Shown in pieces: positions 3,649 through 60,866 of a DNA stretch of 64,000 nt. A model generated the notes under the pieces. It saw only the letters and a program-made list of their open reading frames with translations. It was not told where the DNA came from and ran no database searches. The DNA comes from a virus. Position numbers and translations under genes: made by a program. Where the stretch lies: positions 1-64,000 of the IMG/VR virus record IMGVR_UViG_3300009506_000025, one strand, 5' to 3'. Position 1 is the stretch's first letter; every line of letters starts with the position of its first letter.

Positions 3649-3688
3649 GAGCATTGATATCCACTCCCCGAGAAACGGAGAACCTCGG

Positions 3689-3943: not shown

Positions 3944-4114
3944 TGCCACCGTGGAGGGCAAGGATGTTCCCCCACACCTGCCTGCCGTGCCGCCAGCCAT
4001 CCTGGATCTCCTGGCCAGGGTCCAGCGTCTTGAGGCTAGGATCGCGAGACTCGAATCCCGCAAGCTGAAGAGGCCAACGAAACGAAGTCCCAGGGAGGCT
4101 CTGGGGGGGAAAGA

Positions 4115-18056: not shown

Positions 18057-18676
18057 TGGGTTGTCCTACCTCCTGCGTACTCGGTGAAGATCTGGTCTTC
18101 TCGGTCACAACCCACGATCCGGATACCGGCGTGCTGACCGACGCGGATTCTGTCCCCAGCTACCGGATCTACGAGGACGAAACCACCGCGGCAATCCTCA
18201 ATGGCAGCATGGCAAAGCTCGACGACGTAAACACGACGGGCTTCTATAGCGAGTTGATTGCCGTTACGGCAGGCAACGGATTCGAGGCCGGGAAGAATTA
18301 CACGGTCTACATCGAGGCGACGGTTGACTCCGACACCGGCGGTATCAGCTACGCCTTCAAGGTAACACCCGCGGTCCCAGATGCGAACGCGGTTCAGATC
18401 AATGACAGCGCAGCGGCAGCCGCGCAGCTCGCGCTCTCCGCTATCGGTATCGTGTCCGGCGCGGCTATCCTGGGGACCTTGTCCACGACCCAGATGACGA
18501 CAGACCTCACCGAAGCGACGGACGATCATTACATCGGCGGGGTGATCGTCTGGACCAGTGGGGCGCTGGCAGGACAGCGGAGCGACGTGACGGACTACGA
18601 CGGTGCAGTCAAGATGCTCACCTACACGGCGACTACCGACGCCCCCTCGGCGGCGGATACCTTCGTGATTATCTGA
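18056..18676 (+). CDS. Putative virion structural protein
   Basis: Ig-like TG.Y start; Thr/Ala/Asp-rich; C-terminal G..AGQ...VTDY......T.......P...DTFVI. Confidence 0.7.
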   Translation: MGCPTSCVLGEDLVFSVTTHDPDTGVLTDADSVPSYRIYEDETTAAILNGSMAKLDDVNTTGFYSELIAVTAGNGFEAGKNYTVYIEATVDSDTGGISYAFKVTPAVPDANAVQINDSAAAAAQLALSAIGIVSGAAILGTLSTTQMTTDLTEATDDHYIGGVIVWTSGALAGQRSDVTDYDGAVKMLTYTATTDAPSAADTFVII

Positions 18677-18677
18677 G

Positions 18678-18908
18678 ATGGCGCAGCTCACCAGACAATC
18701 CCTGATGGCCGTCGCGATGGGCATGTATGGCTCCTTCGCAGGGAAGCTGCCCGCCGAGGTATCGGCACTGGACGGTACGCCCGACGAGACCCTCCGTCGT
18801 GGAGAGCCGGTGACCGACACGCTCAGGAGAGGCGAACAAGTAACCGGGACACTCCGCCGCAGCGGAGACCCGGATGATCCGCTGTGGAAGCATTGGAAAC
18901 CTAACTGA
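18678..18908 (+). CDS. Small protein with three TLRR(G/S) decapeptide repeats
   Basis: ETLRRGEPVT-DTLRRGEQVT-GTLRRSG. Confidence 0.6.
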   Translation: MAQLTRQSLMAVAMGMYGSFAGKLPAEVSALDGTPDETLRRGEPVTDTLRRGEQVTGTLRRSGDPDDPLWKHWKPN

Positions 18909-18921
18909 AAAGGAGAGCGAG

Positions 18922-19380
18922 ATGAGACGTTGGACAAAAGTGCTATTTAGTGGTCTCCATGTTACGGTGCTGATAGCCCTTCTCGCCGTAGCTATTTACG
19001 GAGCCTTCTGTACGCTTAACTATTTTGCCTCGGCTGGTGTGCCGCCCATCGGCGGCCAATCGATGCAGGTGATCGATGGAATCCTAACCCCCGTGGGATA
19101 CCACCAGTACACCTCGCTGGCAACGTCCAAGGATCTCAGTGATGGCGGGACGTTTACAATCCCCGCAAATGCCCAGATTGCCTGGATTCAGGCCGAGACC
19201 AAGGACGTCCGCTGGAGGGACGCCGACTATGCCGACGGCGACACGACCAACCCTACCGCTACGGTGGGCATGGTCCTTGCCGCCGGGAACTCGATCTGGT
19301 ATCACGGAAACCTCAAGGCAATCGAGTTCATCGAGACTTCCGCCAGCGCCAAGCTGAACGTCTCGTTCTATGCAAAATAG
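18922..19380 (+). CDS. N-terminally membrane-anchored beta-sandwich protein
   Basis: AAGGAG SD; TM segment followed by IQAE..DVRWRD...PT..VG..L.AG...LNVSFY. Confidence 0.75.
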   Translation: MRRWTKVLFSGLHVTVLIALLAVAIYGAFCTLNYFASAGVPPIGGQSMQVIDGILTPVGYHQYTSLATSKDLSDGGTFTIPANAQIAWIQAETKDVRWRDADYADGDTTNPTATVGMVLAAGNSIWYHGNLKAIEFIETSASAKLNVSFYAK

Positions 19381-19412
19381 GAACGGACACCCTCGGCTGA
19401 GGCTCGGATGCC

Positions 19413-20255
19413 ATGCTAAGCCACTCGATCATCATCCCGCACCGGGACTACTCCAAGTACCTAGAGATGTGCCTCTGGTCGATCCGGTGCTCCGCGCACT
19501 GCTGCGACGTCGATGACTACGAGGTCCTGGTAGTAGACCAGGGCTCGAAGCTGCCCCCGACCCTCTACGATCCGCACGATCGCTTGATCAAGCAGCCCCG
19601 CGCGCCAGCCTATAGGTACATCCGCTACTTCAACAAGCCGATGGCACTGAACGAGGGGATCAGGCAGGCCAAGGGCGAGATCCTGACCTTCCTCGACGCG
19701 GACGCGATCGTTGGCGAACTCTGGATGGATTGCGTGAGCTGGTTGAAGGGAGAGAATGACCGTAACGCCATGACAAAACTTTGCTACCGCGTCCGCTATC
19801 TCCCCGAGACCGCATTGATTCGGATGGCGGCCCTGGAGCCGGACGCTAGGGAGAAGATGGTCTACGGTGAACGGGGCTTCTTTGACTGCTACCGAGACTT
19901 CCAGCGGGCGGTGGAGTGCTACGGGGAGCCCGACAAGGACCCGCACAACAATCCTCCAGGCAGGAAGTGGGACGGGGATGAGCCACCGGAGCATCCGATC
20001 TTCGGGAACTCGCAGTTTTCGATCCATCGCGACCAGCTCGGGAAGATCCGGTTCGACGAGAAGTACGTCGGCCGCGGGTTCGAGGACATCGCCATGAACC
20101 GGGAGATCTGGAGACGGAAGGGGGACAACTACCGAGCGGGGATCGTGCTCGATTCAAGGCACGCGATGTTCCACGTCCGCAACCCCAGCCAGGGGGAGAA
20201 GTGGGGGGCAGGCAAGCAGAACACCGCCAATCTCAGGAGGTACAACAAGACATGA
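19413..20255 (+). CDS. GT2/GT7C-like glycosyltransferase
   Basis: SIIIPHRD, VVDQGS, FNKP.A.N.G, FLDAD, FDE.Y.G.GFED. Confidence 0.85.
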   Translation: MLSHSIIIPHRDYSKYLEMCLWSIRCSAHCCDVDDYEVLVVDQGSKLPPTLYDPHDRLIKQPRAPAYRYIRYFNKPMALNEGIRQAKGEILTFLDADAIVGELWMDCVSWLKGENDRNAMTKLCYRVRYLPETALIRMAALEPDAREKMVYGERGFFDCYRDFQRAVECYGEPDKDPHNNPPGRKWDGDEPPEHPIFGNSQFSIHRDQLGKIRFDEKYVGRGFEDIAMNREIWRRKGDNYRAGIVLDSRHAMFHVRNPSQGEKWGAGKQNTANLRRYNKT

Positions 20256-21253
20256 GAGTCCTGGTTGCGGGGGCTGGAGGGTTCATCGGGGGGCACTTGG
20301 CCAGGGCGCTGGTCAAGGCTGGGCATGAAGTCCACGCCGTCGACATCAAGCCCTACGAGGAATGGTGGCAAGGGGCGGGGGCCGGAGGTCCCGCTTCCCT
20401 GTTCTTCTCGACTAACATTGCCTGCGAGAGAGAGGCAACATACCACTGCACAGGGATGGATTGGGTCTTCAATCTGGCCTGCGATATGGGGGGGATCGAG
20501 TTTATCGAGGGAAACAAGGCCCGCTGCATGGACTCGGTTCTGATCAACGCCAACCTGCTACGGGCTGCCAGGAAGAACAGGGTTAAGCGATACCTCTACA
20601 CCTCCTCGGCCTGCGTCTACCGGGCGGATCGGCAGGACGGCCCGGATCAGCCGCCGCTGAAGGAGGAGGATGCTTACCCGGCGATGCCCGAGGATGGCTA
20701 TGGCTGGGAGAAACTCTTTTCGGAGCGACACTGCCGGCACTACATGGAGGACTACGGCCTGGACTGCCGCGTGGTCCGGCTGCACAACGTATACGGCCCC
20801 CACGGGTCCTGGTGCGATGGACGCGAGAAGGCCCCGGCGGCGATTTGCCGCAAGGTGGCCGAGGCGAGGCTCCAGGGAGACGGGGAATTTATGATCTACG
20901 GGGATGGGACCCGGACCAGGACCTTCATGTGGATCGAAGACTGTGTCGAGGGGCTCCAGAGGATCATGGAGTCGGAGATCCGCCAACCGATCAACCTGGG
21001 TATCCAGGACGAGGTGGTCACGATCAACCGCCTGGTGGAACTCGTCCAAGAGGTGGCAGGAACGGACCTGGAGGTGAACCACGACCTCTCCCGGGCCCAG
21101 GGCGTCTACGGCCGATCTAGCGACAATACCATGATTCGCAGAGAGCTAGACTGGGAGCCGAGGACCCCGTTGCTGAGCGGCCTCGCCCGTACCTATCCCT
21201 GGATCGAGGACCAAGTGAGGAAGCGAGAATGCTTGAGTACCCCCACTCGCTGA
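20252..21253 (+). CDS. GDP-mannose 3,5-epimerase-like NAD-dependent epimerase
   Basis: GAGGFIG, FNLACDMGG..FI, SSACVY, PEDGYGWEKL, HNVYGP.G.W..GREKAPAA.CRK, GRSSDN. Confidence 0.9.
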   Translation: MRVLVAGAGGFIGGHLARALVKAGHEVHAVDIKPYEEWWQGAGAGGPASLFFSTNIACEREATYHCTGMDWVFNLACDMGGIEFIEGNKARCMDSVLINANLLRAARKNRVKRYLYTSSACVYRADRQDGPDQPPLKEEDAYPAMPEDGYGWEKLFSERHCRHYMEDYGLDCRVVRLHNVYGPHGSWCDGREKAPAAICRKVAEARLQGDGEFMIYGDGTRTRTFMWIEDCVEGLQRIMESEIRQPINLGIQDEVVTINRLVELVQEVAGTDLEVNHDLSRAQGVYGRSSDNTMIRRELDWEPRTPLLSGLARTYPWIEDQVRKRECLSTPTR

Positions 21254-21876
21254 CAGCGGAGGAGATCCGGGACCTCGTGGGCGTGGCCCCCCTGATGCTG
21301 GAGATCGGCTGCCACGACGGCTCGGACACGGCGAAGTTTCTCAGGGCGATGCCCGAGGCGATCATCCACTGCTTCGAGCCCTACGAGAACCCGAGGCGGA
21401 GATTCCGTGAGAGCGTCGGGACCTCCAAGCGGGTCCGTCTCTATCCGGTGGCGGTCTGTGACATCGATGGTCAAGTTGAGTTCTACGCCTCGACCGGCGC
21501 CGCCGGTGGCCGGGAGGACTGGGACTACTCCGGGAGCATCAACCGGCCGACGGGCCACCTCAAGCGGTCCCCGGAGATCGCCTTCAAGCCCCCGATCACG
21601 GTCGAAGGGATGCGACTGGACACCTGGTTCGAGGAGCACTCGCTGCCGAAGATCGACTTCATCTGGGCCGATGTCCAGGGTGCCCAACGGAAGGTGATCG
21701 AGGGTGGACAGCGAGCCCTACTGGCGACCCGGTATCTCTATATCGAGAGGCACCGATGGCCGTTGTACCAGGACGAGCCCACCCCGGACGAGCTGCTCAG
21801 ACTCCTACCGGGATTCAACCCCCTGGCGGAGTACGCCCGAGAGAACGTACTCCTGGAAAACAGGTACGCCAAGTGA
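21229..21876 (+). CDS. FkbM-family methyltransferase
   Basis: LEIGCHDG, CFEP, IDFIWADVQGA. Confidence 0.9.
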   Translation: MLEYPHSLTAEEIRDLVGVAPLMLEIGCHDGSDTAKFLRAMPEAIIHCFEPYENPRRRFRESVGTSKRVRLYPVAVCDIDGQVEFYASTGAAGGREDWDYSGSINRPTGHLKRSPEIAFKPPITVEGMRLDTWFEEHSLPKIDFIWADVQGAQRKVIEGGQRALLATRYLYIERHRWPLYQDEPTPDELLRLLPGFNPLAEYARENVLLENRYAK

Positions 21877-22772
21877 GCTGCGAGTTTCACAGAGCGGCGG
21901 ATACGCTGCGGAAGATCAACAGCCTGGGCGTGGCCGGACGCGCGAAGGATGCCTCGGACAGCATCAAGGTGATCGACTCCCTGCTCTCGACCTACAACCA
22001 GGCGAAGTCAGCTAACCACCTGGCAAAGTTTCAACCGGCGATGGACGGGTTCCTAGCAGCCACACGCAAGTCGATGACGGAACTCGTCTACGCGGTGGAA
22101 CAGATGGCCGAGATCGTCGGTCCCCAAAACTTCAACGCCTCGCCCCCGGCGTTGGAGTCGATGGCCGCCATGCGTAGCCGCAACTTCCCGGAGGCACCCC
22201 AGGTGGGCGCCCTGCACGGGGAGGATGCGATTATAAGGGATCTGCTTCCGGAGTCGGTCGGCCACTACGTCGACATCGGGGCCTGGCGCCCAGTAGAGCA
22301 GTCGAACACCTGGGCCCTCTACCAGCGGGGATGGAGGGGGCTGTTGATCGAACCGGTCCCCCAGGCTTGGGGCGCTATTTTGCATCAGCGACCAGGGGAT
22401 TTTCTGGCGCCCTGGGCAGTGAGCGACACCGCAGGACCGACCCGCATGTGGGTCAACGGCCCCCTGAGCACGATCCGGCCGGACAAGGCCCTGGCGGAGT
22501 CGAGTGAGATCGTGGTGCAAGGGCTTCCCTTGAATCAGATCTTGAAATTCTTTCCCACCATCCGTGATCAGTGCCTGATGTGCAGCATCGACGTCGAAGG
22601 CGCTGAAGAGGCGATCCTGAAATCTACCGACTGGAAGAAGTTCTCGCCCAGGATTCTAGTGGTGGAGTTCATCCACGGAAACCAAGACTCCATCAAGGCG
22701 ATCCTGACCGCAGCGGGTTACCGGAAGCAGGCCGACACCCGCAACAACCTGATCTTCAGCCGGAAGGAATAG
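21873..22772 (+). CDS. FkbM-family methyltransferase with N-terminal helical extension
   Basis: GTGA-coupled start; YVDIGA..P...SNT...Y..GW.G.LIEP, SIDVEGAE. Confidence 0.85.
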   Translation: MSCEFHRAADTLRKINSLGVAGRAKDASDSIKVIDSLLSTYNQAKSANHLAKFQPAMDGFLAATRKSMTELVYAVEQMAEIVGPQNFNASPPALESMAAMRSRNFPEAPQVGALHGEDAIIRDLLPESVGHYVDIGAWRPVEQSNTWALYQRGWRGLLIEPVPQAWGAILHQRPGDFLAPWAVSDTAGPTRMWVNGPLSTIRPDKALAESSEIVVQGLPLNQILKFFPTIRDQCLMCSIDVEGAEEAILKSTDWKKFSPRILVVEFIHGNQDSIKAILTAAGYRKQADTRNNLIFSRKE

Positions 22773-22775
22773 CTG

Positions 22776-23534
22776 GTGAGTACGATCCGCTGGCGAGAGA
22801 TCGAATGGTGGTACGTCAACCTCTCCACCCGCCCCGACCGCCGGGAGCACGCCGAGGAGCAATTCGCCCGCCATGGCCTCCAGGCCCGGCGCTTCGAGGC
22901 GTACACACCGGACCAGTGGAATGGGCCCGGCGCGGACGTCGCCATGATGCGTCCGACTCCCGGGGCGATCGGTTGCTTTATGTCCCAACGCGAGGTCACA
23001 CGAACTGTGGAGGGGACAGATAGGGTGGTGGCCGTCTGCGAGGACGACGTGCTGTTCTGCGACGATCTCTGCGATCGCCTCCAGTACATCGAGGAGAACT
23101 TCCATAAACCCTGGGACGTCTTCTGGCTGGGATCGACCTACCACGTCAACCCGCCAGTCTGGCACACCAAGGATCTGGGAAGGGATTTCTGCCAGACAGA
23201 CGTGAAACATATCCACCGGGCCTACGGGCTCTGGGGGACCTACGCCTACCTGGTCAACGGCCGTAGTGTCTCCAGGATCATGGAACTCTTCCAGCGGGAC
23301 CTGCCAAAGGCCCGGGGGATCGACGATCTCTACATCATGCTGGAGCCGGAGATCAACAGCTACTGCTTCACCCCCGGGATGGCGTTTCAGATCGACGGGA
23401 AGACGAACATCGGCGTAGGGGGAGACGGGATGACCATCTTCTCGAACTTCCACAAGCTGGGGCCCTATGTCTTCACGAAGCGGCTGGAGGATTTCGACTA
23501 CGACTCGTTCAATTGGGCGGAGGGGAAGCGATGA
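22776..23534 (+). CDS. GT25 (LPS biosynthesis-type) glycosyltransferase
   Basis: YVNL..RPDRR, G.IGC..S, EDDV.F, W.T.AYLVN. Confidence 0.85.
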   Translation: MSTIRWREIEWWYVNLSTRPDRREHAEEQFARHGLQARRFEAYTPDQWNGPGADVAMMRPTPGAIGCFMSQREVTRTVEGTDRVVAVCEDDVLFCDDLCDRLQYIEENFHKPWDVFWLGSTYHVNPPVWHTKDLGRDFCQTDVKHIHRAYGLWGTYAYLVNGRSVSRIMELFQRDLPKARGIDDLYIMLEPEINSYCFTPGMAFQIDGKTNIGVGGDGMTIFSNFHKLGPYVFTKRLEDFDYDSFNWAEGKR

Positions 23535-24292
23535 GCGAACTCACCGAGAAGGAATTTCACGATCAGGTCGAGGACACCTACCGGAGGATGTACCTTGAGC
23601 CCGATGCGCCCGCCCCATCGATGACGGCCGCGGAGTACCGCGGGCTCTACGGCGAGGTGGTGACCAACGACTGCTACGGACTGGGGGCGATAGAGTTTCA
23701 GCCCGAGGTGATCTTCGATCTAGGGGCGAACGTGGGGGTGTTTACCAACTTTGCACGCCGGCTTTTTCCCGAGGCAACGATCATAGCCGTCGAGCCCGAC
23801 GAGCAGAACATGCAGAACATGAGCTACCTGGCAACGGATCACAGCCAGACGGTGTTCATGGAGTACGCAATCGGACTTGGTCTGGTCTATTCTGCCGGAA
23901 GCCTAGCGAACGGAGCCCACCGTTCCTATATCTGCGATGGATCAGAGTACCTCCGACCATTTACCCAGGAGGGCGGGCGGTACAAGCTCTCCGATGTTCC
24001 TGCAATCACCCTCTCCGCACTGATGGACCTTTTTCCGATCCAGCCGCGTTTCATCAAGGTGGATATTGAAGGAGGGGAGGCGGCGATTTTCGAGCACGAG
24101 AAATCGATGCTGGCGCTCGCCGAAACGGAGGCATTTGCAATAGAGCTACACGATCGGTGGTGGGCGACCAGACTACAATCGCTGCTATCTGAGACCCACT
24201 CTGCCGAGTGGGAGCCTCGGACCTGCGTGCTGAAGGCAAGGAAGAGATCGCCGGCGACACCCCCATCGCGAGGAAGACCAACTCAGGAGTAA
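23531..24292 (+). CDS. FkbM-family methyltransferase
   Basis: IFDLGANVG.F, AVEP, FIKVDIEGGE. Confidence 0.9.
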   Translation: MSELTEKEFHDQVEDTYRRMYLEPDAPAPSMTAAEYRGLYGEVVTNDCYGLGAIEFQPEVIFDLGANVGVFTNFARRLFPEATIIAVEPDEQNMQNMSYLATDHSQTVFMEYAIGLGLVYSAGSLANGAHRSYICDGSEYLRPFTQEGGRYKLSDVPAITLSALMDLFPIQPRFIKVDIEGGEAAIFEHEKSMLALAETEAFAIELHDRWWATRLQSLLSETHSAEWEPRTCVLKARKRSPATPPSRGRPTQE

Positions 24293-24295
24293 CCC

Positions 24296-24841
24296 GTGGA
24301 AAAGATCACGAGCAGGGCACACTTCTACAAGCTCCTCGACAGACCGGAGTTGAAGCAGGCGGCGGCGGAGGTCGGGGTAGCTGAAGGCAGGTATTCCCGC
24401 GAGATCCTTTCGTGGGGAATAGGTAAGCTCTACCTTGTAGACCTGTGGGAGGAGATCGGGGGGATGAAGGGGTGCCCAAGCACCGGGCAACACCAGCAGA
24501 ACTACGACTCCTGCCTCCGTATCGTCGAACAATTTCCTGGTCGGGTGATCCTCCTGAAGGGATGGTCCTGGGAGCAGGCCAAGAATGTTCCCGACAATTC
24601 GCTGGGCCTGGTCCATCTCGACGCGCACCACTACTACGAGTCGGCGGTCAAAGACCTGGCGGCATGGTGGCCGAAGCTCCTGCCCGGGGGTGTGATGTCG
24701 GGCCATGATTATCTGGCCCACGAGTACACGGTCAGACAGGCAGTGGACGAGTTTGCTACAGCAAGAAAGATCGAGGTCCTTGTTGATAGGCCAGACGATC
24801 CCCGCAATGCCTCGTTCTATTTCAGAAAGCCCCCGGCATGA
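24296..24841 (+). CDS. Methyltransf_24-like methyltransferase
   Basis: AEVGVAEG, VDLW, LDAHHYYE, W.PKL.PGG..SGHDY. Confidence 0.85.
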   Translation: MEKITSRAHFYKLLDRPELKQAAAEVGVAEGRYSREILSWGIGKLYLVDLWEEIGGMKGCPSTGQHQQNYDSCLRIVEQFPGRVILLKGWSWEQAKNVPDNSLGLVHLDAHHYYESAVKDLAAWWPKLLPGGVMSGHDYLAHEYTVRQAVDEFATARKIEVLVDRPDDPRNASFYFRKPPA

Positions 24842-25614
24842 ACATCAAGGTCCTCACGGGCTACCAGGGCGATTGCCTCTATCGCGAGCTGACGCTGGCG
24901 AACCTTGGAGAATACTGCGCCAGGTGGGGCCACACGTTCGTATCTCGATTCGGCGACTGGATGGACGAGCGTGGCGAGATGGAGGAAACGGCCCGGAGGT
25001 TTTTGGAGAGATCCGGAGGAAGGATCTCGGAAGAGGAATACGCCATCCGTCCAGAGCACGCGACCCGCAAGATGACCCTTACCTGGGCCAAGCATCTACT
25101 GATCCGGGAGGAACTAGGCGGCTGCGACTGGCTCCTGTGGCTGGACGCCGACTGCAAGATTATGGATATGCGGGTGTCCCTGGATTCGCTGATAGACAGC
25201 GACCACGATCTTGTCCTTTCTGGAATGTTTCCCGAGTGCTGGGCGGCCAATACCAAGGCAGTGATGTGCAAGGAAGCGCCAGAGGGGCACGGGGTCGTCT
25301 CGCTTGGGATCATGTTGATGAGGAACTGTACCTGGACTTGGGATCTTCTGGACGCCTGGTGGGCGTCGCGCAACAAGGACTGGGCGAGAGAGAAACCCTA
25401 CGAGTGCATGTACCATGGAGACAATCAGTGGTTCTCGTGCCATTTCATGCTCAAGGCCCCCGGCCGGGATCGAGTAAAGGTCGTGCCCAAGGAGACGATG
25501 GGTTGGTGCCACCACAAGCCAGACCTCCAGCAGTTCATAATCCACCTCTACGGGAGCATCGAGGTGAATCGGCTGGCCATGCTCCGGGACTTGGAACGCT
25601 TTGTGAAACGATAG
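24838..25614 (+). CDS. GT34 (GMA12/MNN10-like) glycosyltransferase
   Basis: N..EYC..WG, W.K..LI, DWLLWLDAD, G..L.RN..W. Confidence 0.75.
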   Translation: MNIKVLTGYQGDCLYRELTLANLGEYCARWGHTFVSRFGDWMDERGEMEETARRFLERSGGRISEEEYAIRPEHATRKMTLTWAKHLLIREELGGCDWLLWLDADCKIMDMRVSLDSLIDSDHDLVLSGMFPECWAANTKAVMCKEAPEGHGVVSLGIMLMRNCTWTWDLLDAWWASRNKDWAREKPYECMYHGDNQWFSCHFMLKAPGRDRVKVVPKETMGWCHHKPDLQQFIIHLYGSIEVNRLAMLRDLERFVKR

Positions 25615-25624
25615 GTGGATCATA

Positions 25625-26287
25625 GTGGACGTCAGATTCACGAACATCACGCCCGTAGAGCCGCTGGTCCGAAACCCCGATAGCATCTCGGATGGGGAGA
25701 AGACAGTTATCGTCGTGGGTCTCGGCCGGGGAGGGACATCCGTCGTTGCGGCGGTGCTGGATGCCTTGGGGGTCTACATGGGACCGCGGGAGGAGCTGAG
25801 TACACAAGGGGCATTTGAGTCCGCCGTGTTCATCCATGGAACCCGCCAGGATCGCGAGGCGGAGATCGCCAGACTCAATGAATTGCATTCCATCTGGGGC
25901 TGGAAATGGCCCTATGGCGCTGATTTGCTTAGCGATATGTATGCCGGAGTGAGGAACCTCCATCCGATCTTTGTCTTCCGGGATGTCGTCGCCCTAATGC
26001 AGTCCTACGCGGTCCACGCCAACGAGTCGGTGGACGAAGTTGCCGAGAACCTTTGGGGGAGGTACTGCAATCTTTACGAGGCGGCGATGGGGACGGAACT
26101 CCCGGCACTACTGGTCAGTTTCGAGCGGGTGAAGATGCGCCCGGTGGATTTCGTCCACAGCGTAGCAGACTTCCTGCGTCTTGAGATCACTAGTTCCCAA
26201 GTTTCGGAGGCAGCGTCCCGGGTCAGTTTCCGTGGAGGATACCTGATCATGCCGGACGAGTACACGGATCGGAGGAAGGCCAAATGA
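25625..26287 (+). CDS. PAPS-dependent sulfotransferase-like protein
   Basis: 5'PSB-like IVVG.GRGGTS, WGWK.P, 3'PB-like IFVFRD.....QS, LVSFE. Confidence 0.75.
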   Translation: MDVRFTNITPVEPLVRNPDSISDGEKTVIVVGLGRGGTSVVAAVLDALGVYMGPREELSTQGAFESAVFIHGTRQDREAEIARLNELHSIWGWKWPYGADLLSDMYAGVRNLHPIFVFRDVVALMQSYAVHANESVDEVAENLWGRYCNLYEAAMGTELPALLVSFERVKMRPVDFVHSVADFLRLEITSSQVSEAASRVSFRGGYLIMPDEYTDRRKAK

Positions 26288-27072
26288 GCTTTAGCTTTGC
26301 AGTGACGGCCTACAATGAACTGTCCGAGGAGGGACGGCACGGCGACTTCATCCTCCGCTGCATCCGTCCCGCCCAGGAGCACCCCGCGATCGATGAGATC
26401 GTGGTGGTGGACGACAGCCCGTCAGACGAGGGCCTCGGCGCGTTCCTCGATGGTCAGGCGAAGGTTCAGTTCTTCCGCAACCCCCAGAACCTCGGGGTCT
26501 TCGGCAACAAGCTCGAAGCGGTGGCCCGCTGCCGGGGGGACTGGGTGATCAACTGTGACTCTGACAACTTCATGGACCGGGCCTATCTGGACAGCGTCAT
26601 AGCCCACGCGCAGCTCGGTGACACCTGGATCTCGGCCAGCTTCGCCAGGCCAGAGTTCGATTATCGGGGTCTCACGGGACTCTGGTCACGCGAGAACCTC
26701 CGAGAATTGCTCAGCCGTCCCCGGGCGGGATGCCTCCTGAACACCGGCAACCAGACAGTCTACCGTCCGGCCTTCATGGAACTCTTCGAGCGGGTGCGTG
26801 GTCTCCGGCCCGACCTGCTGATGCCCAACTGGCTCAATATCCCCGATGACCAGCGGCCAGCCCACCACTGGAGATTGGTCTTCGACGCCCTGGATTCCAC
26901 AATCTACAACATGATCTGGCTGCGGGCCGGTAATCGAATCCGGGTGGTCGAGGGGTTGGAGTACGATCACCACTACTCCTCCGGCGCCGACTCCAACTAC
27001 TCCCGCGCCCCCCGGGACAAGGACCGGCTCTCGGACGTCCTGCTACGCGAACTAGAACAGCTTGCAAGATGA
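26284..27072 (+). CDS. GT2 glycosyltransferase
   Basis: AVTAYN, IVVVDD, RN..NLG...NK, DSDN. Confidence 0.85.
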   Translation: MSFSFAVTAYNELSEEGRHGDFILRCIRPAQEHPAIDEIVVVDDSPSDEGLGAFLDGQAKVQFFRNPQNLGVFGNKLEAVARCRGDWVINCDSDNFMDRAYLDSVIAHAQLGDTWISASFARPEFDYRGLTGLWSRENLRELLSRPRAGCLLNTGNQTVYRPAFMELFERVRGLRPDLLMPNWLNIPDDQRPAHHWRLVFDALDSTIYNMIWLRAGNRIRVVEGLEYDHHYSSGADSNYSRAPRDKDRLSDVLLRELEQLAR

Positions 27073-28001
27073 ACACGATCACGATGCGGGAATTTGGCAA
27101 GTGGGGGCGCTGGGGAAACCAGCTCTTTCAGTACGCCTTTCTGAAGATCTATGCGAGTAAGTGGGGATGTGAACTCCAGCTGCCTCCCTGGGTAGGCAAC
27201 GTGCTACTGGCAGCGAACGATCCACCGATCACCGTGGCGCTACCGCAGACGAGAGAGACCACCGACAAGCTGGAACAGGGGCAGCCACCCAACGGTGCCG
27301 AGCTGGTCGGCAGGGACTACCAGGGCTACGCCCAGTTCCACACGGGGTACTATCGGCCACACGAGGAGCGAATCCGAAACGACCTTTGGCTCCCCTCGCC
27401 CCAGCTCAGGGGCAGGATGCGTCCGGCCATGGAGAAGCTCTGGGGCATGGGCAAGTCCAGGATCGGAATCCATCTCCGCCGCGGCGACTTCGGACGGCTC
27501 TGCTTCTACGTCACCCCGGTCGACTGGTATCTCCGGTGGTTAGACGAGCATTGGAAGCGGTTTGAGGAGCCCGTGCTTTTCATCGCCACGGAGACTCCAG
27601 ATCTCGTAAGGGAGTTCTCCGACTATCACCCCGTCACAACGACCGACCTCGGGATAGATCTCACTGGAGGACCGATGGAACACTACCAGTACCTCCGCCC
27701 CGACCTGCGGATGCGCGAGCCATGGCAGATGGATTTCTTCCCAGACTGGTGTATGCTGGCGTCCTGCGATGTGGTCCTGGCGCCGAATAGCACGTTCTCG
27801 TTCACCGCAGCGATGGCCGGCGACCCTCCGGAATTCTGGAGATCCTCGCTGCCTGCGGGCGCCTTCGTACAGGAAGACGTCTGGGACACCTTCCCCTTTC
27901 AGCACGTTAGGGCCGAGGACTATTGCCATATCCCCGGGGTCTGTCTGGACGAGACGGAATACTGGGTGCGGCTGCCCGATGGGAGGTTCAGGGAGAAATG
28001 A
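27069..28001 (+). CDS. GT11 alpha-1,2-fucosyltransferase-like
   Basis: GR.GNQLFQYA, GY.Q...YY, GIHLRRGD, NSTFS. Confidence 0.85.
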   Translation: MNTITMREFGKWGRWGNQLFQYAFLKIYASKWGCELQLPPWVGNVLLAANDPPITVALPQTRETTDKLEQGQPPNGAELVGRDYQGYAQFHTGYYRPHEERIRNDLWLPSPQLRGRMRPAMEKLWGMGKSRIGIHLRRGDFGRLCFYVTPVDWYLRWLDEHWKRFEEPVLFIATETPDLVREFSDYHPVTTTDLGIDLTGGPMEHYQYLRPDLRMREPWQMDFFPDWCMLASCDVVLAPNSTFSFTAAMAGDPPEFWRSSLPAGAFVQEDVWDTFPFQHVRAEDYCHIPGVCLDETEYWVRLPDGRFREK

Positions 28002-29349: not shown

Positions 29350-29678
29350 GTATACACTACTACGGAGTCACGGCCGCCCGCGCCAAGGGACACGAGGGCC
29401 ACTGGCAGGTCCAGATCCGCGCCGGGGCCAAGATCCTCACCTGGCCGCGACGATTCGCGGACCAGGTAGAAGCGGCCCGGCTCGCTGACGCCCTGGCCCT
29501 CTGCGTTCGGGGACCGGACGCGAGACTGAACTTCGATGGAGTCTGTCCCCCATGGGTCACACCCGAGATTCTCAGGGCCTTTTTTGAGGATCGAGGCGCC
29601 CTGGAATCGGCCCCCTGGATCAAAAACTACCCCCCGGACGGCGAAATTCCCCTTGCCGAGCCAGCCGGTGGCGATTAA
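29346..29678 (+). CDS. Stand-alone AP2/ERF DNA-binding domain protein
   Basis: YYGV......W.VQIR......F....EAAR..D..A...RG..A.LNF. Confidence 0.85.
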   Translation: MSIHYYGVTAARAKGHEGHWQVQIRAGAKILTWPRRFADQVEAARLADALALCVRGPDARLNFDGVCPPWVTPEILRAFFEDRGALESAPWIKNYPPDGEIPLAEPAGGD

Positions 29679-29681
29679 AGT
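29653..29681 (+). promoter_or_regulatory. Candidate sigma70-type promoter for the head operon
   Basis: TTGCCG-N17-TAAAGT. Confidence 0.45.
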
Positions 29682-29794
29682 GCATCTATCCTCCGCATAA
29701 CACTACCTCCCCCTGGCTTACACAGACAACGTGTATGCCGTAGTTAGGCGACCAGCTCTCCTCCGCCAGCGAGAGTCGCCGAGGTGATCTATTG

Positions 29795-30805
29795 ATGGCG
29801 GAGACTGCTAGCGCGGCGGCGGAGGAATCTACCCAGCCCGACGGATCTCTTGCGAGCATCGTGGCCAAGGAGGAGGCAGAAGCCGCCAAGGCCACCAAGG
29901 CGGCCGACGACAAGGCCGCCGCAGATCCGGACGATTCTGACGGGCCGGAGGATGGACTCTCCAAGGAGACCGACGAGGACTACGACGCCCTCTCGGTGAC
30001 CAAATACTACGACGAGACCCAGGGGAGTCGCAAGGCAGAGGTCTTCAAGGATGACGAGAACTTCTTCCGTTGGGTCCGCGAGATGGAAGCCAGCCAGGGA
30101 CGCCGGGACGAGGACGCGATCCTCGGGAAGCAGATCCGCGAGCGGCTATCGGGCAACCCCGAGCTGCTCGACGGAATTCTCGGGGGCAAGAACGGCCAGG
30201 CCGCCAAGGCGTCGGACGAGGAGCCGGAGTTCGACACAGCTTGGGTCACGACGGACGCCCAGGGACGGGTGATCCCCGCTCCGGGTGCCCCCCCGGACGC
30301 CATGAGGAAGCACGCCGCCTGGCAGCGGAAGATCCAGCGATTCGCGGCCAACCCCGAGAAGTTCGTCGAGGAGGCGGTCGCCAAGAGGCTAGAGCAGTTC
30401 GAGGCCCGCTTTCAGCAGACCGAGGAGAAGCTCCAGCGCCAACAGCAGGAGGCAGCCCTGGGGCAGTGGCTGGGGGCCAACAGCCAGGCCCTCTATCTTG
30501 AAGGCGACTACCGTAAGGGCATGACCCGTCCCGGCAAACAGACGACGGAGCTGGCCCAGGCCATCGCCGAGCGTGGCGGCGAGGTGGACATGGAGCTGCT
30601 GGACAAGATCCTCAAGCTGGCGGTGGCATCTGGCCCCAAGCCCGCGCCGAGGAAGGTTCCACCCAAGGCCGTCCGGACCCCGGGCGTCGCCAAGCAGCCA
30701 CCCCCGTCGCAGGACGAAGAGAGCCTATTCCGCGAGGCAGAGAAACAAGGTAAATCCTTTGCCGAGGTCTTCGCCGAGATCTCGGCCAGGGACGCAACGA
30801 CCTGA
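29795..30805 (+). CDS. Capsid scaffolding protein (putative)
   Basis: Acidic disordered N-terminus and coiled coil; lies directly before the capsid gene; GAGGTG SD. Confidence 0.7.
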   Translation: MAETASAAAEESTQPDGSLASIVAKEEAEAAKATKAADDKAAADPDDSDGPEDGLSKETDEDYDALSVTKYYDETQGSRKAEVFKDDENFFRWVREMEASQGRRDEDAILGKQIRERLSGNPELLDGILGGKNGQAAKASDEEPEFDTAWVTTDAQGRVIPAPGAPPDAMRKHAAWQRKIQRFAANPEKFVEEAVAKRLEQFEARFQQTEEKLQRQQQEAALGQWLGANSQALYLEGDYRKGMTRPGKQTTELAQAIAERGGEVDMELLDKILKLAVASGPKPAPRKVPPKAVRTPGVAKQPPPSQDEESLFREAEKQGKSFAEVFAEISARDATT

Positions 30806-30810
30806 GTAAA

Positions 30811-30994
30811 GCGATAACCGTGGCGGCGATTTCGGCGGAGGGGTCGCCGTCGCGTAACGCCCGGGGGGCCGGGCGGATAATCCTTCTCCGGAAGGACCCA
30901 TCCCGCCCCCTGTTTTTCCCCTCCGCCAGGTTTCCTCCGCTATAGCCCTCCCCGGACCCTCCATGGCAATCCGAATCGGTCCCTTGTGACCGAT
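30811..30994 (+). ncRNA. Structured leader/pseudoknot upstream of the major capsid gene
   Basis: 30819-29/30844-54 stem whose loop (30834-43) is complementary to 30918-27; nested hairpin 30871-30908; hairpin 30975-94 covering the ATG. Confidence 0.6.
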
Positions 30995-32108
30995 GGCTTA
31001 TAGCGTAGGGGACCACCAAATGGCCCACATCGAAGCCACGGCGAGGATCAAAACCACCACACTGGACGCCGCCCTGCGGGTCAAGGTGGAGCCGGTCTTT
31101 CGCAAGAGCTACTTTCTCGAAGCGCTCCGCAGCCGCGGACGAATCAGCTTCAACGAGTCCGGCGAGTACATGACCTGGCGGCCTCGGAAGCGGGCGCGGA
31201 GCATCACGGCGGGAAGCGGGACGAACATCGAAATCCCCTTCCCCCAGACCAACATCCGGGCCAAGGTCAGCCTGCCCTGGCGGCACTACTACCTTGGCGA
31301 GTCGATCGAGTATTACGAGCTGCTGGTGAACAAGGGCGAGAACGCCGTGTTCTCGATCATGGACGATGCCGTGGACGCCGCGGCCGATGACTTCGTCCGC
31401 AGCTTCCGGCCCAAGCTCTACTCGGATGGCGACGCCGGCGCGGGGAACGAGCTGCACGGCCTGGAGTCGTGTATGGCCGTCAACGGCCTGATCACCAACT
31501 CGAAGTGCTGCAACCCCAACGACACCTACGCCACGACCTCGACGGCCCTGGGCGTCGGCGGGGCATGGACCGCAGACACGGGCGATGGATGGCCCACCGG
31601 GACGGGGGACCCAGAGTACCATTGGTGGTCCCCCATAGTGATTGACTACAATCACCCAGATTGGGCGGGAGCCAACAACTGGACGACTTCCTGGCAGCAG
31701 GTGCTCCGGTACGGCCAGACCTACCTGAGCAACCTCCAGCAGGAGGACCCGGACGTCTGCCTGCTCCACCCCGAGCTGTTGCGCGAGGCCAAGGACTCCC
31801 TGGAATCGGCCCAGCGCTTCGAGCTGACCCAGCAGGAGGGCCGGACCAACGTCGGCCACAAGACGCTGCTGTTCGAGGACATCGAGATCGCCACGGAGTA
31901 CGGGATGCCCGACGGCGTGGGCTACTTCCTCTCCTTCGAGAACCTCCAGCTGCGGTGCCTGACGAGCCAGCTCGTCGAGACCCAGCAGGACACCGACATC
32001 GTCTCTGGGGGGACGAAACTCGTTTCGTTCCAGTTCTTCGGGAACCTGATGATCTACGCCCCCAGCTTCCTAGCCAAGCTCCTCGGGTACTCGGCCGCCG
32101 GAACCTAA
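30993..32108 (+). CDS. Major capsid protein
   Basis: 371 aa after the scaffold; I...E...N.G...V..., LYSDG..., L.GL..., F.DI.I..E...P.G..YFL....L.L, GNL pattern of HK97-fold capsids. Confidence 0.85.
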   Translation: MAYSVGDHQMAHIEATARIKTTTLDAALRVKVEPVFRKSYFLEALRSRGRISFNESGEYMTWRPRKRARSITAGSGTNIEIPFPQTNIRAKVSLPWRHYYLGESIEYYELLVNKGENAVFSIMDDAVDAAADDFVRSFRPKLYSDGDAGAGNELHGLESCMAVNGLITNSKCCNPNDTYATTSTALGVGGAWTADTGDGWPTGTGDPEYHWWSPIVIDYNHPDWAGANNWTTSWQQVLRYGQTYLSNLQQEDPDVCLLHPELLREAKDSLESAQRFELTQQEGRTNVGHKTLLFEDIEIATEYGMPDGVGYFLSFENLQLRCLTSQLVETQQDTDIVSGGTKLVSFQFFGNLMIYAPSFLAKLLGYSAAGT

Positions 32109-32173
32109 CCGGCAGCTCCAGTGTGAGAGGGTTACTTTCGTTTCAATAGGGGCATTTTCAAGGAGAAAACCCG

Positions 32174-32743
32174 ATGGGAATGACAAACCATTGCCTCCCG
32201 TTTCCCCGGGGTTCGACGTACTCGGACGGCGGGACACTGACGATGACGGACACCTTCAAGAACGACCTGCTGGGGCGGGTCTTCCTGACGCCCGATACCG
32301 TCCACGGCACGGGAAAGACCGTCGCCCTGCGTGTCGTGAAGAACGATACGGGCGCGGCGATTACGGTGGCCCGCAATCTCTGCGAGTTCGATGGCGCCGA
32401 CGCCTACGACTTCGGTCGAAAGGTGACCAGCTTCGGGAACAACCTTTCCGCCCAGGGCGCCGTCTGCAAACCGCTGGACGACGCCTACACCGTGGGGGCG
32501 AGCATCCCGGCCAACGACCTCTTCTACGTGATTGAGGAGGGCTACGCTACGGTCCTGACCGAGAGCGGGGCCGTCTCGCTCCCGAGGGGCACGGCTGTCT
32601 GCGCCAACGCGACCGGGACCCTGGACGGCGCCCGCGCCGCCGCGGGGACCTATGTGATCGGGACGATGGTGAATCCCTGCTACGCAGCGAGCACCAACGC
32701 GATCATCGACGTCAACGCCGGGCTCTTGAACGCCTCGGCCTAA
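32174..32743 (+). CDS. Capsid decoration/cement protein (putative)
   Basis: AAGGAG SD; follows the capsid gene; Ala/Gly/Thr-rich with FYVI.EG.A.V. Confidence 0.65.
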   Translation: MGMTNHCLPFPRGSTYSDGGTLTMTDTFKNDLLGRVFLTPDTVHGTGKTVALRVVKNDTGAAITVARNLCEFDGADAYDFGRKVTSFGNNLSAQGAVCKPLDDAYTVGASIPANDLFYVIEEGYATVLTESGAVSLPRGTAVCANATGTLDGARAAAGTYVIGTMVNPCYAASTNAIIDVNAGLLNASA

Positions 32744-33440: not shown

Positions 33441-33761
33441 ATGGAGAAGCTCAGCTCACCCTTGAACATTATCGATCGCCTCCGGCAAGAGGGCGTGGAT
33501 TACCGCACGGATATTCCCGCGGTGAGGGCCTGTGCGGTGGCCGCCTTCGGCGGCGCCAAAGGTCTCGCGGAGATGCTAGCGCAGGAGTACGAAGCCGCCC
33601 GCCCGGGGAGCGCGGTCCGAGCCAAGATCCTCACGACGATCCTCGATATGATCAAGGATGACCCAGGCGAGGAAGAGGAGTTCGATGACGAGGACTACGA
33701 AGCGGTCGATCGGCTGATCTCGGGGGGGTCGCCAGGAGGTGCCAATGGCGATTCCACTTGA
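33441..33761 (+). CDS. Terminase small subunit candidate
   Basis: 106-aa helical protein overlapping the TerL start; position only. Confidence 0.45.
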   Translation: MEKLSSPLNIIDRLRQEGVDYRTDIPAVRACAVAAFGGAKGLAEMLAQEYEAARPGSAVRAKILTTILDMIKDDPGEEEEFDDEDYEAVDRLISGGSPGGANGDST

Positions 33762-35484
33762 TATGTCGGCCCTGGTCGCCCGGACCTCCTCGGCGCCTCG
33801 CCTGGACGCCGGGGCGATGACCTCGCAGATAGCCTACCTGGCTAGTCGAGCCAGCCGCCGCCGCAAGATCAAGAAGATCCTCGCCCGGCACATGGAGGGG
33901 CTGAGGCTGGTCCGCCCGCTTCCACACCTGGAATGCTTTCACCGATCAGGAAAAGCCTGGAGGATAATCGACGGCAGCAACCGCTCCTCGAAAACCATGA
34001 GCGCCTGCATTGAGCTGTGCCGGGCGATCCTCTCCGCTGACCCCTACAAGAAGTACATTCCCTACCAAGGGAACGTGATTGTCGTAGGGATGAAACTCGA
34101 CCATGTCGAGATGATCTGGAGGAAGTGCGCCATGCCGGGCGCCTTCAAGATCATCCGAGACGAGATCAACGGGCTCTATCGGGCAGTTCGCCCTGACCCC
34201 AACGATCCCCTCCATCTCGATCCTTACGACGAGGCGTACCGGGAGAAGTGGCGGGACGGTCCACCGTTGATCCCCGCCAGGATGATCAGGGGTAACATCG
34301 CCTGGGAGGATCGGGCCAGGGCAATCCCCTCCTTCGCCAAGTTCGCGACCGGATGGCAGATCCACTTCCACTCCTCGAAGTCCGTCCCCCCCCAAGGCGA
34401 CCACTACCACTTTGCCCTGCTCGATGAGGAACTCCTCAACCCGATGTTCCTCACGGAGATCCGCCGCGGACTGGTGGCCCTGGACGAGCCGGTCGATCAG
34501 CGCCCCCGAGGGATCTGGTCCGCTACCGCCCAGACCACCAACCCCGAGCTGCTGCGGATGCGGGAGCAGGCCGATGCCGGATCGGCGCGGGTGGACGCCT
34601 TCCAGGCCCTGATCAAGGACAACCCCTACGTCCCCGACGAGGAGAAGCAGGCTTTCCACGATTCCCTGAGCCCCGAGGACCGGAGGGTCCGCTACTACGG
34701 CGAGTACACTCTGGCCGGGATGCGGTGCTACCCCAACTTCGATGCCCAGACGATCCACGGCTACGAGCCGATGGAGATCCCGGATACCTGGTGCCGCTAT
34801 CTGATCCTCGACCCCGGGACCCGGCACTGCGGGACGCTGTTTGCGGCGGTCGATCCCCAGGAGGCCCACGTTTGGGTCTACGACGGTTTCGATCTCCAAA
34901 ACGGCGACCCGGCGACCTGGGCCCAGCGGATTGCCGCGCGCCACGAGCAGTTCCAGGCGGGGATCATCGACACCAAGGCGGGCAAGCAGCGCTCGATGGG
35001 GATGTCAAGCCAGACCGTCAACGTAGCCACCGCGTACTTCAGCGCCCTGAAGGACGAGGGTGTGCGGTTCATCCAGGAGGGACCTCTCTACGGGTTTTTT
35101 GCGGGCAGCGAAGATCAGCCGGGCAGGCAGACCGCGCTCCAGACCTGGCTGACGATCAGGGAGCATGGTCCGTTCTCCGGGACCTGCAAACTCCAGGTAG
35201 CCCGGGGAGCGATTCCCGAGCTTGAGGATCAGGTCCGCTTCGCCCACATGGACCTCCAGAACCCGGATCGGCGGGCCAAGCCTAAGTGGAATCGCTTCCA
35301 GGAGGACTTGCTGGTCTGCCTGGAGTACCTGGCCGCCTTCGAGCCCCGCTACTTCGCGCCGAAGATCGTCGAGGACCCGCGAGGGGCGGAAGTCTACTGG
35401 CAATACAAGAACTCAAGACGGGTCCACGCCCGCCGTCGTGCCGCCACTTCCAGCCAGGCGAGTTCGATGATCGAAATGGGCTGA
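33739..35484 (+). CDS. terL: Terminase large subunit
   Basis: Walker A-like GSNRSSKT, Walker B FALLDEE, motif III WSAT, DNPY, RNase H-like LILDPG, late D(L)..CL.YL. Confidence 0.9.
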   Translation: MPMAIPLDMSALVARTSSAPRLDAGAMTSQIAYLASRASRRRKIKKILARHMEGLRLVRPLPHLECFHRSGKAWRIIDGSNRSSKTMSACIELCRAILSADPYKKYIPYQGNVIVVGMKLDHVEMIWRKCAMPGAFKIIRDEINGLYRAVRPDPNDPLHLDPYDEAYREKWRDGPPLIPARMIRGNIAWEDRARAIPSFAKFATGWQIHFHSSKSVPPQGDHYHFALLDEELLNPMFLTEIRRGLVALDEPVDQRPRGIWSATAQTTNPELLRMREQADAGSARVDAFQALIKDNPYVPDEEKQAFHDSLSPEDRRVRYYGEYTLAGMRCYPNFDAQTIHGYEPMEIPDTWCRYLILDPGTRHCGTLFAAVDPQEAHVWVYDGFDLQNGDPATWAQRIAARHEQFQAGIIDTKAGKQRSMGMSSQTVNVATAYFSALKDEGVRFIQEGPLYGFFAGSEDQPGRQTALQTWLTIREHGPFSGTCKLQVARGAIPELEDQVRFAHMDLQNPDRRAKPKWNRFQEDLLVCLEYLAAFEPRYFAPKIVEDPRGAEVYWQYKNSRRVHARRRAATSSQASSMIEMG

Positions 35485-35503: not shown

Positions 35504-35953
35504 ATGAGGGAGGAATTCGTTTATCCCGACATCAGAATGGGAATGTTCGTCGAGGTGAGCAACGATCCCAGCCGGAGCGACCGGATGCTGGGGATCGTGA
35601 TCGACCCGAAGAACGAGTGCGCCGACATCTGCACGATCACCCGAACCGGGCTCGGGATGCGCCGAAACTGTTGGTACGAGGGCGACCCCCGATGTGACCA
35701 CGAGCTTGAGCACTTCCACAGGAACCAGTCCGGGGTGTTCAACATCGCGCCCAGGGAGCTGGAGATCATCCACCTCCGCGAGGACCTCGACAAACTGACG
35801 CAGGAACTAGAGGAGGCGAAAGCGAGGGAGGCCGTCAAGCCACTCCGGAAGCAAGATCCTCCGCAGATTGCCGAGGCCGCTGACCTCCCCGCGCCAAAGC
35901 GCAAGGGACGCCCCCCCAAGAGCACCCGACCAGAACCGGTGATCGCCCAATAG
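35504..35953 (+). CDS. Hypothetical protein with C-terminal AT-hook-like KRKGRPPK
   Basis: AAGGAG SD; lies between TerL and portal. Confidence 0.75.
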   Translation: MREEFVYPDIRMGMFVEVSNDPSRSDRMLGIVIDPKNECADICTITRTGLGMRRNCWYEGDPRCDHELEHFHRNQSGVFNIAPRELEIIHLREDLDKLTQELEEAKAREAVKPLRKQDPPQIAEAADLPAPKRKGRPPKSTRPEPVIAQ

Positions 35954-60806: not shown

Positions 60807-60866
60807 TGTAGCTCCGGGGCTAAAAGACCGCGGGGACCTCCGCGGAGCTACACGACGGAGGTCCCC
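60807..60866 (-). ncRNA. H-type pseudoknot in the leader of the clamp-like gene
   Basis: Perfect 11-bp (60866-56/60842-32) and 10-bp (60852-43/60816-07) interleaved stems. Confidence 0.7.

Follow-up and report, generated by a model that had tools for sequence, protein, structure and literature searches.

Does the long non-coding gap between a putative scaffolding gene and a major capsid gene fold into an RNA that governs capsid production? We asked this of an uncultured phage represented by the virus record IMGVR_UViG_3300009506_000025, a terminally redundant sequence of 72,807 base pairs (bp) with direct terminal repeats; its first 64,000 nucleotides (nt) are the stretch analyzed here (the window). 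To our knowledge, how tailed phages achieve a very high and balanced output of capsid and scaffold proteins is understood in only a few model phages. In this phage the two genes are separated by a leader of 214 nt, in which the original prediction had placed a structured RNA with pseudoknot geometry. Comparison with relatives shows a pseudoknotted leader RNA that is conserved and covaries and that is specific to the clade's capsid gene: these uncultured phages keep a structured leader of 140 to 270 nt at the scaffold-like/capsid junction, and two hairpins (P1 and P2) and the pseudoknot covary. Because the fold is kept in relatives by compensating mutations, the leader is very likely a real and undescribed control element for capsid protein production. 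The coordinates of its parts, and of other features referred to in the text, are collected in Table 1.

The bounds of the leader follow from the capsid start codon. A search with the capsid protein found 26 homologues, the two closest being 72% and 69% identical, and 23 of the 26 were aligned. Since 22 of these 23 begin at a methionine that matches residue 10 of the long open reading frame (ORF), the true start is most likely ATG 31020 rather than ATG 30993, a correction that therefore sets the leader at 30806 to 31019. ATG 30993, which is in frame and lacks a Shine-Dalgarno sequence, was weighed as a start, as was a mini-ORF of 8 codons within the leader (ATG 30963 to TGA 30987-30989); the N termini of the homologues argue against both. 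The 7-bp hairpin that had been predicted to cover the capsid ATG (P3; 30975-30981 with 30988-30994) does exist, but the ATG that it covers, 30993, is probably not the start codon. In the folds of several relatives, small hairpins are found at an equivalent position. Within the 72,807-bp record, the leader occurs once.

An H-type pseudoknot topology is present in full in the window sequence, as had been predicted. Its first stem (S1, 11 bp with 2 G-U pairs) is the outer part of P1. It is followed by a loop L1 of 4 nt (30830-30833) and by the second stem (S2, 10 perfect bp), which joins a purine-rich word in the P1 loop (a) to a downstream word (a'1) with no spacer (L2 = 0) and with a third loop (L3) of 63 nt. 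An independent script search returned the same S1 of 11 bp, L1 of 4 nt, and L2 of 0. The hairpin said to be nested in L3 is real and present in the minimum free energy (MFE) structure (P2, -31.1 kcal/mol). A further pairing that had been suggested, 30861-30869 with 30946-30955, can form (8 bp including 1 G-U, -15.8 kcal/mol) but competes with the basal stem of P2, which is found in the MFE structure and has counterparts in the relatives' folds.

We searched both strands of the window blindly for H-type pseudoknots with an S2 of at least 10 Watson-Crick bp, an S1 of at least 9 bp, an L1 of at most 15 nt, an L2 of at most 1 nt, and a gap between arms of at most 160 nt. Exactly two matches were returned, 30834/30918 on the plus strand and 60852/60816 on the minus strand, versus a mean of 0.08 (maximum, 1) in 100 dinucleotide shuffles. 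The whole leader also folds better than expected, an equally good fold arising in 1 of 200 shuffles. The nested MFE structure prefers a P1 of 15 bp (-25.0 kcal/mol), in which an inner U-G-rich extension (30830-30833 with 30840-30843) competes with S2 and positions 30918-30927 are mostly unpaired. The 11-bp P1 (-17.4 kcal/mol) and the S2 duplex (-22.7 kcal/mol), summed before any pseudoknot loop penalty, outweigh the 15-bp P1; the pseudoknot is therefore energetically plausible and, that penalty aside, would be favored over the nested alternative. Given these shuffle counts, the covariation of P1 and P2, and the excess of own over cross-phage pairing in S2 (see below), chance alone is very unlikely to account for the pairings, which are commoner than in shuffled sequence and covary in relatives.

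Table 1. Features of the capsid leader and of related elements in the window
Feature	Position(s)	Strand	Remarks
Upstream gene, putative scaffolding protein, 336 amino acids (aa)	29795 (ATG)..30805	+	Acidic, Ala/Glu/Lys/Gln-rich
Whole non-coding capsid leader, 214 nt	30806..31019	+	Conserved gap; fold z = -2.72
P1 hairpin (S1)	30819..30854	+	30819-30829 with 30844-30854; covaries on alignment A5
Word a, GGCGGAGGGG	30834..30843	+	Shine-Dalgarno-like purine word in P1 loop; 5' strand of S2
P2 hairpin, within L3	30862..30912	+	Basal stem 30862-30869/30905-30912; middle 30871-30876/30898-30903; apical 30881-30886/30891-30896
P2 loops	30877-30880; 30897; 30887-30890	+	Internal AUAA; bulged C opposite; terminal loop; from the fold
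T5 run directly past P2	30913..30917	+	T-run of at least 4 after P2 in 6/12 leaders
Word a'1, CCCCTCCGCC	30918..30927	+	3' strand of S2; 10/10 complement of a
Word a'2, CCTCCGC	30934..30940	+	Within helix 30929-30947/30996-31016 over the capsid Shine-Dalgarno sequence (MFE)
Words a'3 and a'4, both CCCTCC	30946..30962	+	30946-30951 and 30957-30962; loop 6-mer complements
Small 7-bp hairpin P3	30975..30994	+	Between repeats and ribosome binding site
Shine-Dalgarno GGGGA and likely start codon	31008..31022	+	GGGGA 31008-31012; ATG 31020; capsid gene 31020-32108
Second pseudoknot candidate	60807..60866	-	S1 60866-60856/60842-60832, 11 bp; S2 60852-60843/60816-60807, 10 bp
Loops of second pseudoknot	60855-60853 (L1)	-	L1 3 nt; L2 0; L3 15 nt; minus-strand reading

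Relatives were gathered through an alignment of the capsid protein, which yielded 24 metagenome loci, the best 80 of 126 viral loci, and one contig from a genome collection (individual loci carry an L and three digits). The single capsid protein had no match among cultured-phage records and matched nothing in the genome collection, where the alignment matched one contig of 6.9 kb. In the nearest loci with DNA, the capsid protein is 57% identical. The clade comes from marine sediment, groundwater, and digester metagenomes. In all 25 loci with a placed capsid start (window included), the gap from the upstream plus-strand ORF to that start measures 142 to 269 nt, and in complete contigs the counterpart of the upstream gene at the same place is an ORF of 279 to 392 aa. 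In the predicted folds of these gaps, one order recurs: P1, P2, often a T-run, several CUCC words, a small hairpin, a Shine-Dalgarno sequence, and AUG. P1 starts 0 to 38 nt past the stop codon and carries a GGAG-containing purine word in its loop, and P2 follows 0 to 7 nt later.

The original prediction had called for a covariation check on the scaffold-capsid intergenic regions of related phages; this was in effect carried out and was positive for P1, P2, and S2, giving comparative support to a genuine, evolutionarily conserved RNA fold ahead of the capsid gene. A MAFFT alignment of 11 leaders (A5) served for P1; two of these leaders, L008 and L028, are out of register and thus weigh against the structure. 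Pairs of the 11-bp outer stem form in 88.7% of cells (66.1 ± 3.1% in shuffles), and all 11 show changes on both sides. The covariation score of 0.724 (vs. 0.312) was reached by none of 500 shuffles, and slid controls did not exceed 51%. In our own test, the 5' arms are mutually just 28% identical, and each pairs with the 3' arm of its own leader at 7.4 of 8 positions, compared with 3.5 of 8 across phages, a total that none of 20,000 permutations reached.

The pseudoknot helix S2 was examined in the 12 leaders that bear P1. In every one of them, the longest stretch past P2 that is Watson-Crick complementary to the P1 hairpin (7 to 10 nt) has its partner in the P1 loop, with a mean length of 8.4 nt within a phage and 6.5 nt across phages (observed total reached by 0 of 20,000 permutations). 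The a/a' words themselves vary by phage and include GCGGAGG/CCUCCGC, AUGGAGGGC/GCCCUCCAU, GCGGAGA/UCUCCGC, and GUGGAGG/CCUCCAC. Under a blind rule that took the first CUCC after P2 and scored ten positions flanking the GGAG:CUCC core, the flanks pair at 5.08 of 10 positions with their own partner and at 3.18 across phages; 0 of 50,000 permutations reached the observed total. Pairing at the two positions 5' of the core is seen in 11 of the 12 leaders, with the types CG/UA/GC and GC/UA/AU/GU. With a engaged, S1 measures approximately 10 to 13 bp and S2 9 to 13 bp, and L2 is 0 or 1 nt in 9 of 12 leaders. The exceptions are L008 (L2 = 5), L013 (in which another duplex scored higher), and L007, for which the script's P1 borders were wrong and the fold places a next to the 3' arm of P1. 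Both pseudoknot stems are backed by compensatory changes, the statistics for S2 coming from our own scripts and from related sequences.

The middle and apical stems of P2 were tested on 18 sequences (A4), L040 and L045 having been dropped since their 3' ends were misaligned in A3. Pairs are formed in 81.8% of cells, versus 60.8 ± 2.5% in shuffles, and the covariation score of 0.484 (vs. 0.173) was reached by 0 of 500 shuffles (slid controls, at most 57.6%). The stems enclose a conserved, asymmetric internal loop, GG-AYAM...C-CC, in which the invariant letters are the two G-C pairs closing the loop and the third loop base; one C bulges out on the other side. Most leaders have ACAC in this loop, the window and L008 AUAA. 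A covariance model of the P2 core (R1; E ≤ 1; both strands) gave 24 matches across 98 sources (634 kb) and another 8 across 10 additional ones, the 32 comprising 19 distinct sequences. Every match lies on the sense strand, approximately 100 to 150 nt before the capsid start. R1 recovered L045 and L046, both outside the seed, and missed L040 (where the motif is visible by eye), L009, L032/L033, and L038; it found no match in a distant capsid group (~27 to 30% identity; L047 to L107).

In several distant relatives (L037, L040, L041, L043, L045, L012, L014, and L021), the P2 core is kept approximately 100 to 150 nt before the capsid start, and P1 and the repeats are absent. Here P2 caps one long hairpin of 25 to 30 bp, G-rich on its 5' side and C-rich on its 3' side, a form that suggests how the pseudoknot form arose. 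The outer stem that flanks P2 in L037, L040, L041, and L045, which lack P1, is complementary and of unrelated sequence; a plain outer stem at the same topological position fits the prediction of an RNA helix. A separate observation concerns the contig from the genome collection (L108), which belongs to a metagenome-assembled genome labelled Methanobacteriota archaeon. Its capsid gene (3001-4056) is 36% identical, and its P2 hairpin, at 2850-2900 upstream of this gene, is identical to that of a digester group (L014 to L017). Either a viral contig was binned into this genome, or some of the clade may infect methanogens.

The partner of the P1 loop is not a single word. Each of the 12 leaders has two to five copies of the complement of its P1-loop 6-mer downstream of P2, the a' words being repeated at a spacing of 10 to 24 nt. 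The window has four CUCC words (a'1 to a'4), and the complement of its loop 6-mer, GGAGGG, occurs at leader positions 114, 141, and 152. These multi-copy CCUCC repeats and the conserved internal loop of P2 are additions to the original prediction's description, and the leader is a natural example of co-evolution between a Shine-Dalgarno-like loop and several anti-Shine-Dalgarno-like repeats. In the MFE structure of the window leader, the helix containing a'2 (-24.7 kcal/mol as a duplex) is predicted to pair the capsid Shine-Dalgarno sequence fully (probability of being unpaired, 0.00). In MFE folds of the 3' half, 9 of 12 leaders have this sequence paired with a word of CUCC type, and in L004 and L005 the complement runs past the core (GGACCUCC/GGAGGUCC).

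The reading that we favor, with middling confidence, is that the leader works as a cis-acting RNA that controls how readily ribosomes reach the capsid gene and begin its translation. P1, with 11 to 15 bp, lies just past the stop codon of the scaffold-like gene; its GGAGG-type loop word would pair with a CCUCC-type word beyond P2, closing an H-type pseudoknot with no spacer, and one further a' copy would usually pair with the real capsid Shine-Dalgarno sequence. The leader would in this way gate ribosomes at the capsid start and set capsid output from the late transcript relative to that of the upstream gene. The CUCC repeats would serve as occluders of GGAGG-type words, and P2 would be a recognition or tertiary-contact module.

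Several points weigh against this reading. The 12 P1-bearing leaders are related (L004 and L005 closely), and the permutation counts therefore overstate independence. The test of the pseudoknot rests on our own scripts; two MAFFT alignments, A2 (P1 to P2) and A6 (a to a'), are out of register for P1 or the pseudoknot and were excluded from the counts. Occlusion of the Shine-Dalgarno sequence was not seen in L011 and L019, and in L030 the search pattern recognized no Shine-Dalgarno sequence. S2 and the Shine-Dalgarno helix use different a' copies; both can therefore form at once, and nothing points to a simple two-state switch. The number of repeats is unexplained, as the a' copies outnumber the GGAGG words, and a ribosome binding site closed by default is odd for the most abundant virion protein. 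Finally, a' words are present in the upstream gene's leader as well, which a purely local cis model fails to explain. In the 150 nt before that gene, the longest complement of the P1 loop measures 7 to 10 nt in 8 of 9 phages (own, 7.8 nt; cross-phage, 6.5 nt; P = 0.001); the 8-nt match of L019 is not a GGAG-type word. In the window, the upstream leader (29679-29794) holds three CUCC-type words (29690, ~29707, and 29760), and relatives carry their phage-specific word there. One of the three is paired in the window MFE structure with GGCGGAG just past the AUG of the upstream gene, in a fold that is unexceptional (z = -1.56).

It is possible, though doubtful, that the leader serves instead in RNA processing or stability. 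P2 (~20 bp with internal loops) or the coaxial S1/S2 stack would then be cut by an RNase III-like enzyme; P1 and half of P2 would be left as a protective 3' end on the upstream mRNA, and the capsid mRNA would gain a defined, stable, and perhaps translationally activated 5' end. The RNase III sites of T7 and the lambda N leader are processed in such a manner. The helix of about two turns formed by S1 (11 bp) and S2 (10 bp) with L2 = 0 is, on paper, a duplex of sufficient length, P2 has an asymmetric internal loop, and a single hairpin of 25 to 30 bp occupies this position in distant relatives. However, GG-AYAM/C-CC in P2 is conserved more strictly than RNase III is known to require, and cutting would leave unexplained both the repetition of the a' words and their copies in the upstream leader.

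A broader scheme, which we consider rather improbable, would make the leader part of a phage-encoded circuit of Shine-Dalgarno and anti-Shine-Dalgarno mimicry. The P1 loop would mimic a ribosome binding site and recognize phage-specific mimics of the 16S rRNA 3' end (CCUCC plus 2 to 4 nt) in the leaders of both the scaffold-like and the capsid genes; P1-P2, acting in cis and in trans as a c4-like riboregulator, would tie translation of one gene to that of the other and fix their stoichiometry, and the element at 60807-60866 would be another instance in the early region.

Transcription attenuation is a quite improbable alternative. P2 with its U-run would be a partial intrinsic terminator, or the C-rich, G-poor repeats would be a Rho entry site in an untranslated stretch of 214 nt, with these signals masked or uncovered by the pseudoknot and by pairing of the Shine-Dalgarno sequence. 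In the window, a GC-rich P2 is indeed followed by T5, and in all 12 leaders the segment after P2 is C-rich and G-poor (C/G, 1.15 to 3.86; 9 to 32 YC dimers) and predicted to be largely paired. However, the U-run is missing from 6 of the 12 leaders, and a simple scan of 29500-32500 found no terminator, although P2 exceeds the loop limits of that scan. The a' words lie downstream of the U-run and therefore could not influence an intrinsic termination decision, and halting transcription ahead of the capsid gene seems counterproductive.

A c4-like antisense mechanism, taken by itself, strikes us as very doubtful. P1-P2, as the 3' end of the upstream mRNA or as a processed piece, would be a small RNA whose a word binds a' in both leaders, in cis or in trans, and couples their translation. 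The presence of a' words in both leaders (with the own-phage excess given above), the two to five target copies downstream, and the resemblance of P2 with its U-tail, in half of the leaders, to a small-RNA terminator are consistent with such a role. The targets of C4 lie on both sides of c4. Like the C4 RNA of phages P1 and P7 (immI operon), P1-P2 is a hairpin-loop RNA on the same transcript as complementary sites near a ribosome binding site; in phage P1, a single operon contains both the C4 antisense RNA and the icd and ant targets (PMC8198154). Unlike C4, the present module follows a protein gene of 1 kb, has a cis-pseudoknot geometry (L2 = 0), and has structural rather than immunity genes as its proposed targets. 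It has no Rfam match to C4 or any other family, and the geometry and the plain outer stem of the distant relatives fit a cis fold better.

A purely DNA-level explanation, in which the a' words would be direct-repeat sites of a phage-specific late activator or promoter element, a an inverted copy, and RNA complementarity a by-product, is highly improbable: the words are phage-specific, repeated, and upstream of two consecutive highly expressed genes, and CCTCCGC has 40 copies in the window versus 22.0 ± 4.8 expected, but in all 12 leaders a lies within the loop of a covarying RNA hairpin, directly next to that hairpin's 3' arm, distant relatives have an arbitrary complementary stem at the same topological position, G-U exceeds A-C at the duplex flanks (55 vs. 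26, a weak sign confounded by base composition, which also favors G-U, and by re-use of a), and no sigma-70-like promoter was detected in 29500-32500.

The leader resembles several known systems and matches no Rfam family. Self-cleaving ribozymes and riboswitches were weighed because of the pseudoknot and have no support in Rfam 15: a search of 29500-32500 at E values up to 10 gave only six chance-level matches to miRNA and long non-coding RNA families, far below gathering scores, and 11 related loci (66 kb) gave none at E values up to 0.1. The leader would therefore be a new RNA family for Rfam-type libraries, and it offers a compact object of approximately 200 nt for late-gene translational control. 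A full-text literature search found no report of such a capsid-gene leader. A catalogue built from viral (IMG/VR) contigs comprises 10,006 candidate structured RNAs and places five candidates ahead of another family of major capsid proteins, PHA00201 (Fremin et al. 2023, PMC10690425). Supplement files 3, 5, and 6 of that paper contain none of six IMG taxon ids belonging to our loci; the motif may already be listed in its other supplements.

Two autogenous translational operators, the Escherichia coli L20 rpmI-rplT operator (PMC1888825) and the leader of T4 gene 32 (PMC10690425, PMC3014915), are described as pseudoknots. Both share with the capsid leader a pseudoknot in the 5' leader of the regulated gene, near or involving the ribosome binding site and formed by long-range pairing. 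The present S2 differs in joining a Shine-Dalgarno-like loop to an anti-Shine-Dalgarno-like word that is repeated two to five times, and a conserved P2 lies inside L3. The leader has no sequence or Rfam relation to these operators and is not known to bind a protein. As a long structured non-coding region between a scaffold(-like) gene and the major capsid gene, it also recalls the T7 gene 9-gene 10 region, where a phi10 promoter, a 5' stem-loop leader, and RNase III sites boost capsid expression. Unlike that region, it has a pseudoknot and repeats, no sigma-70-like promoter was detected in 29500-32500, and no phage RNA polymerase was found among 56 further ORFs scanned. In STAB-SD (cryIIIA), a Shine-Dalgarno-like GGAGG lies far upstream of the real site in the leader of a very highly expressed gene, as does the GGAGG word here relative to the real ribosome binding site; unlike in STAB-SD, the word has several complementary repeats downstream, with which it covaries, and this argues for intramolecular pairing rather than binding to 16S rRNA.

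The second match of the blind pseudoknot search, at 60807-60866, has the same 11/10/0 architecture, as had been noted, when taken in minus-strand orientation, the sense orientation of the flanking genes. The two elements had been described as unrelated in sequence, but both have a GGAGG:CCUCC segment in one stem; in the second element, it is S1 that is the CCUCC:GGAGG helix. The common geometry is real, and a chance origin is unlikely. The element ends 7 nt before a Shine-Dalgarno sequence (AAGGAG, 60799-60794) of a gene for 262 aa (ATG 60788) with a weak RusA-like PHROG match. The fold of this leader has a z of -1.95, and a search for relatives of the 262-aa gene behind it found none.

The capsid gene product is a major head protein (phrog_9953, E = 1.4e-20), and a large terminase gene lies downstream (33739-35484). 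The upstream ORF has no Pfam or PHROG match; among named Atlas clusters, the closest is "scaffolding protein" PF09306 (score, 0.90; 81 shared features), which gives no more than a lead. The putative scaffolding role draws on position, acidic/helical composition, and this weak match. Three DNA sequencing runs, all from one marine-sediment study, contain the phage, and no RNA run was found that does; among the contigs of the runs, a comparison with 29600-31300 returned only the identical source contig and short unrelated pieces, with no leader variants.

PHROG names were few among the 56 further ORFs scanned (methyltransferases, sugar enzymes, a serine integrase, an HNH endonuclease, and an ATPase). 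Directly upstream of the head genes, at 12873-28001, is an extended series of genes for sugar and methyl transfer, including methyltransferases, a nucleotide-sugar epimerase, and glycosyltransferases, an unusual phage cargo. A serine recombinase/integrase gene at 50406-51362 on the minus strand (phrog_95, E = 3.4e-32) suggests a temperate lifestyle. The copies of CCTCCGC in the window cluster at 9727-9997, 29690-29760, 30920-30940, 35773-35858, and 50715-51563, and their excess may be due in part to coding bias or to Shine-Dalgarno sequences.

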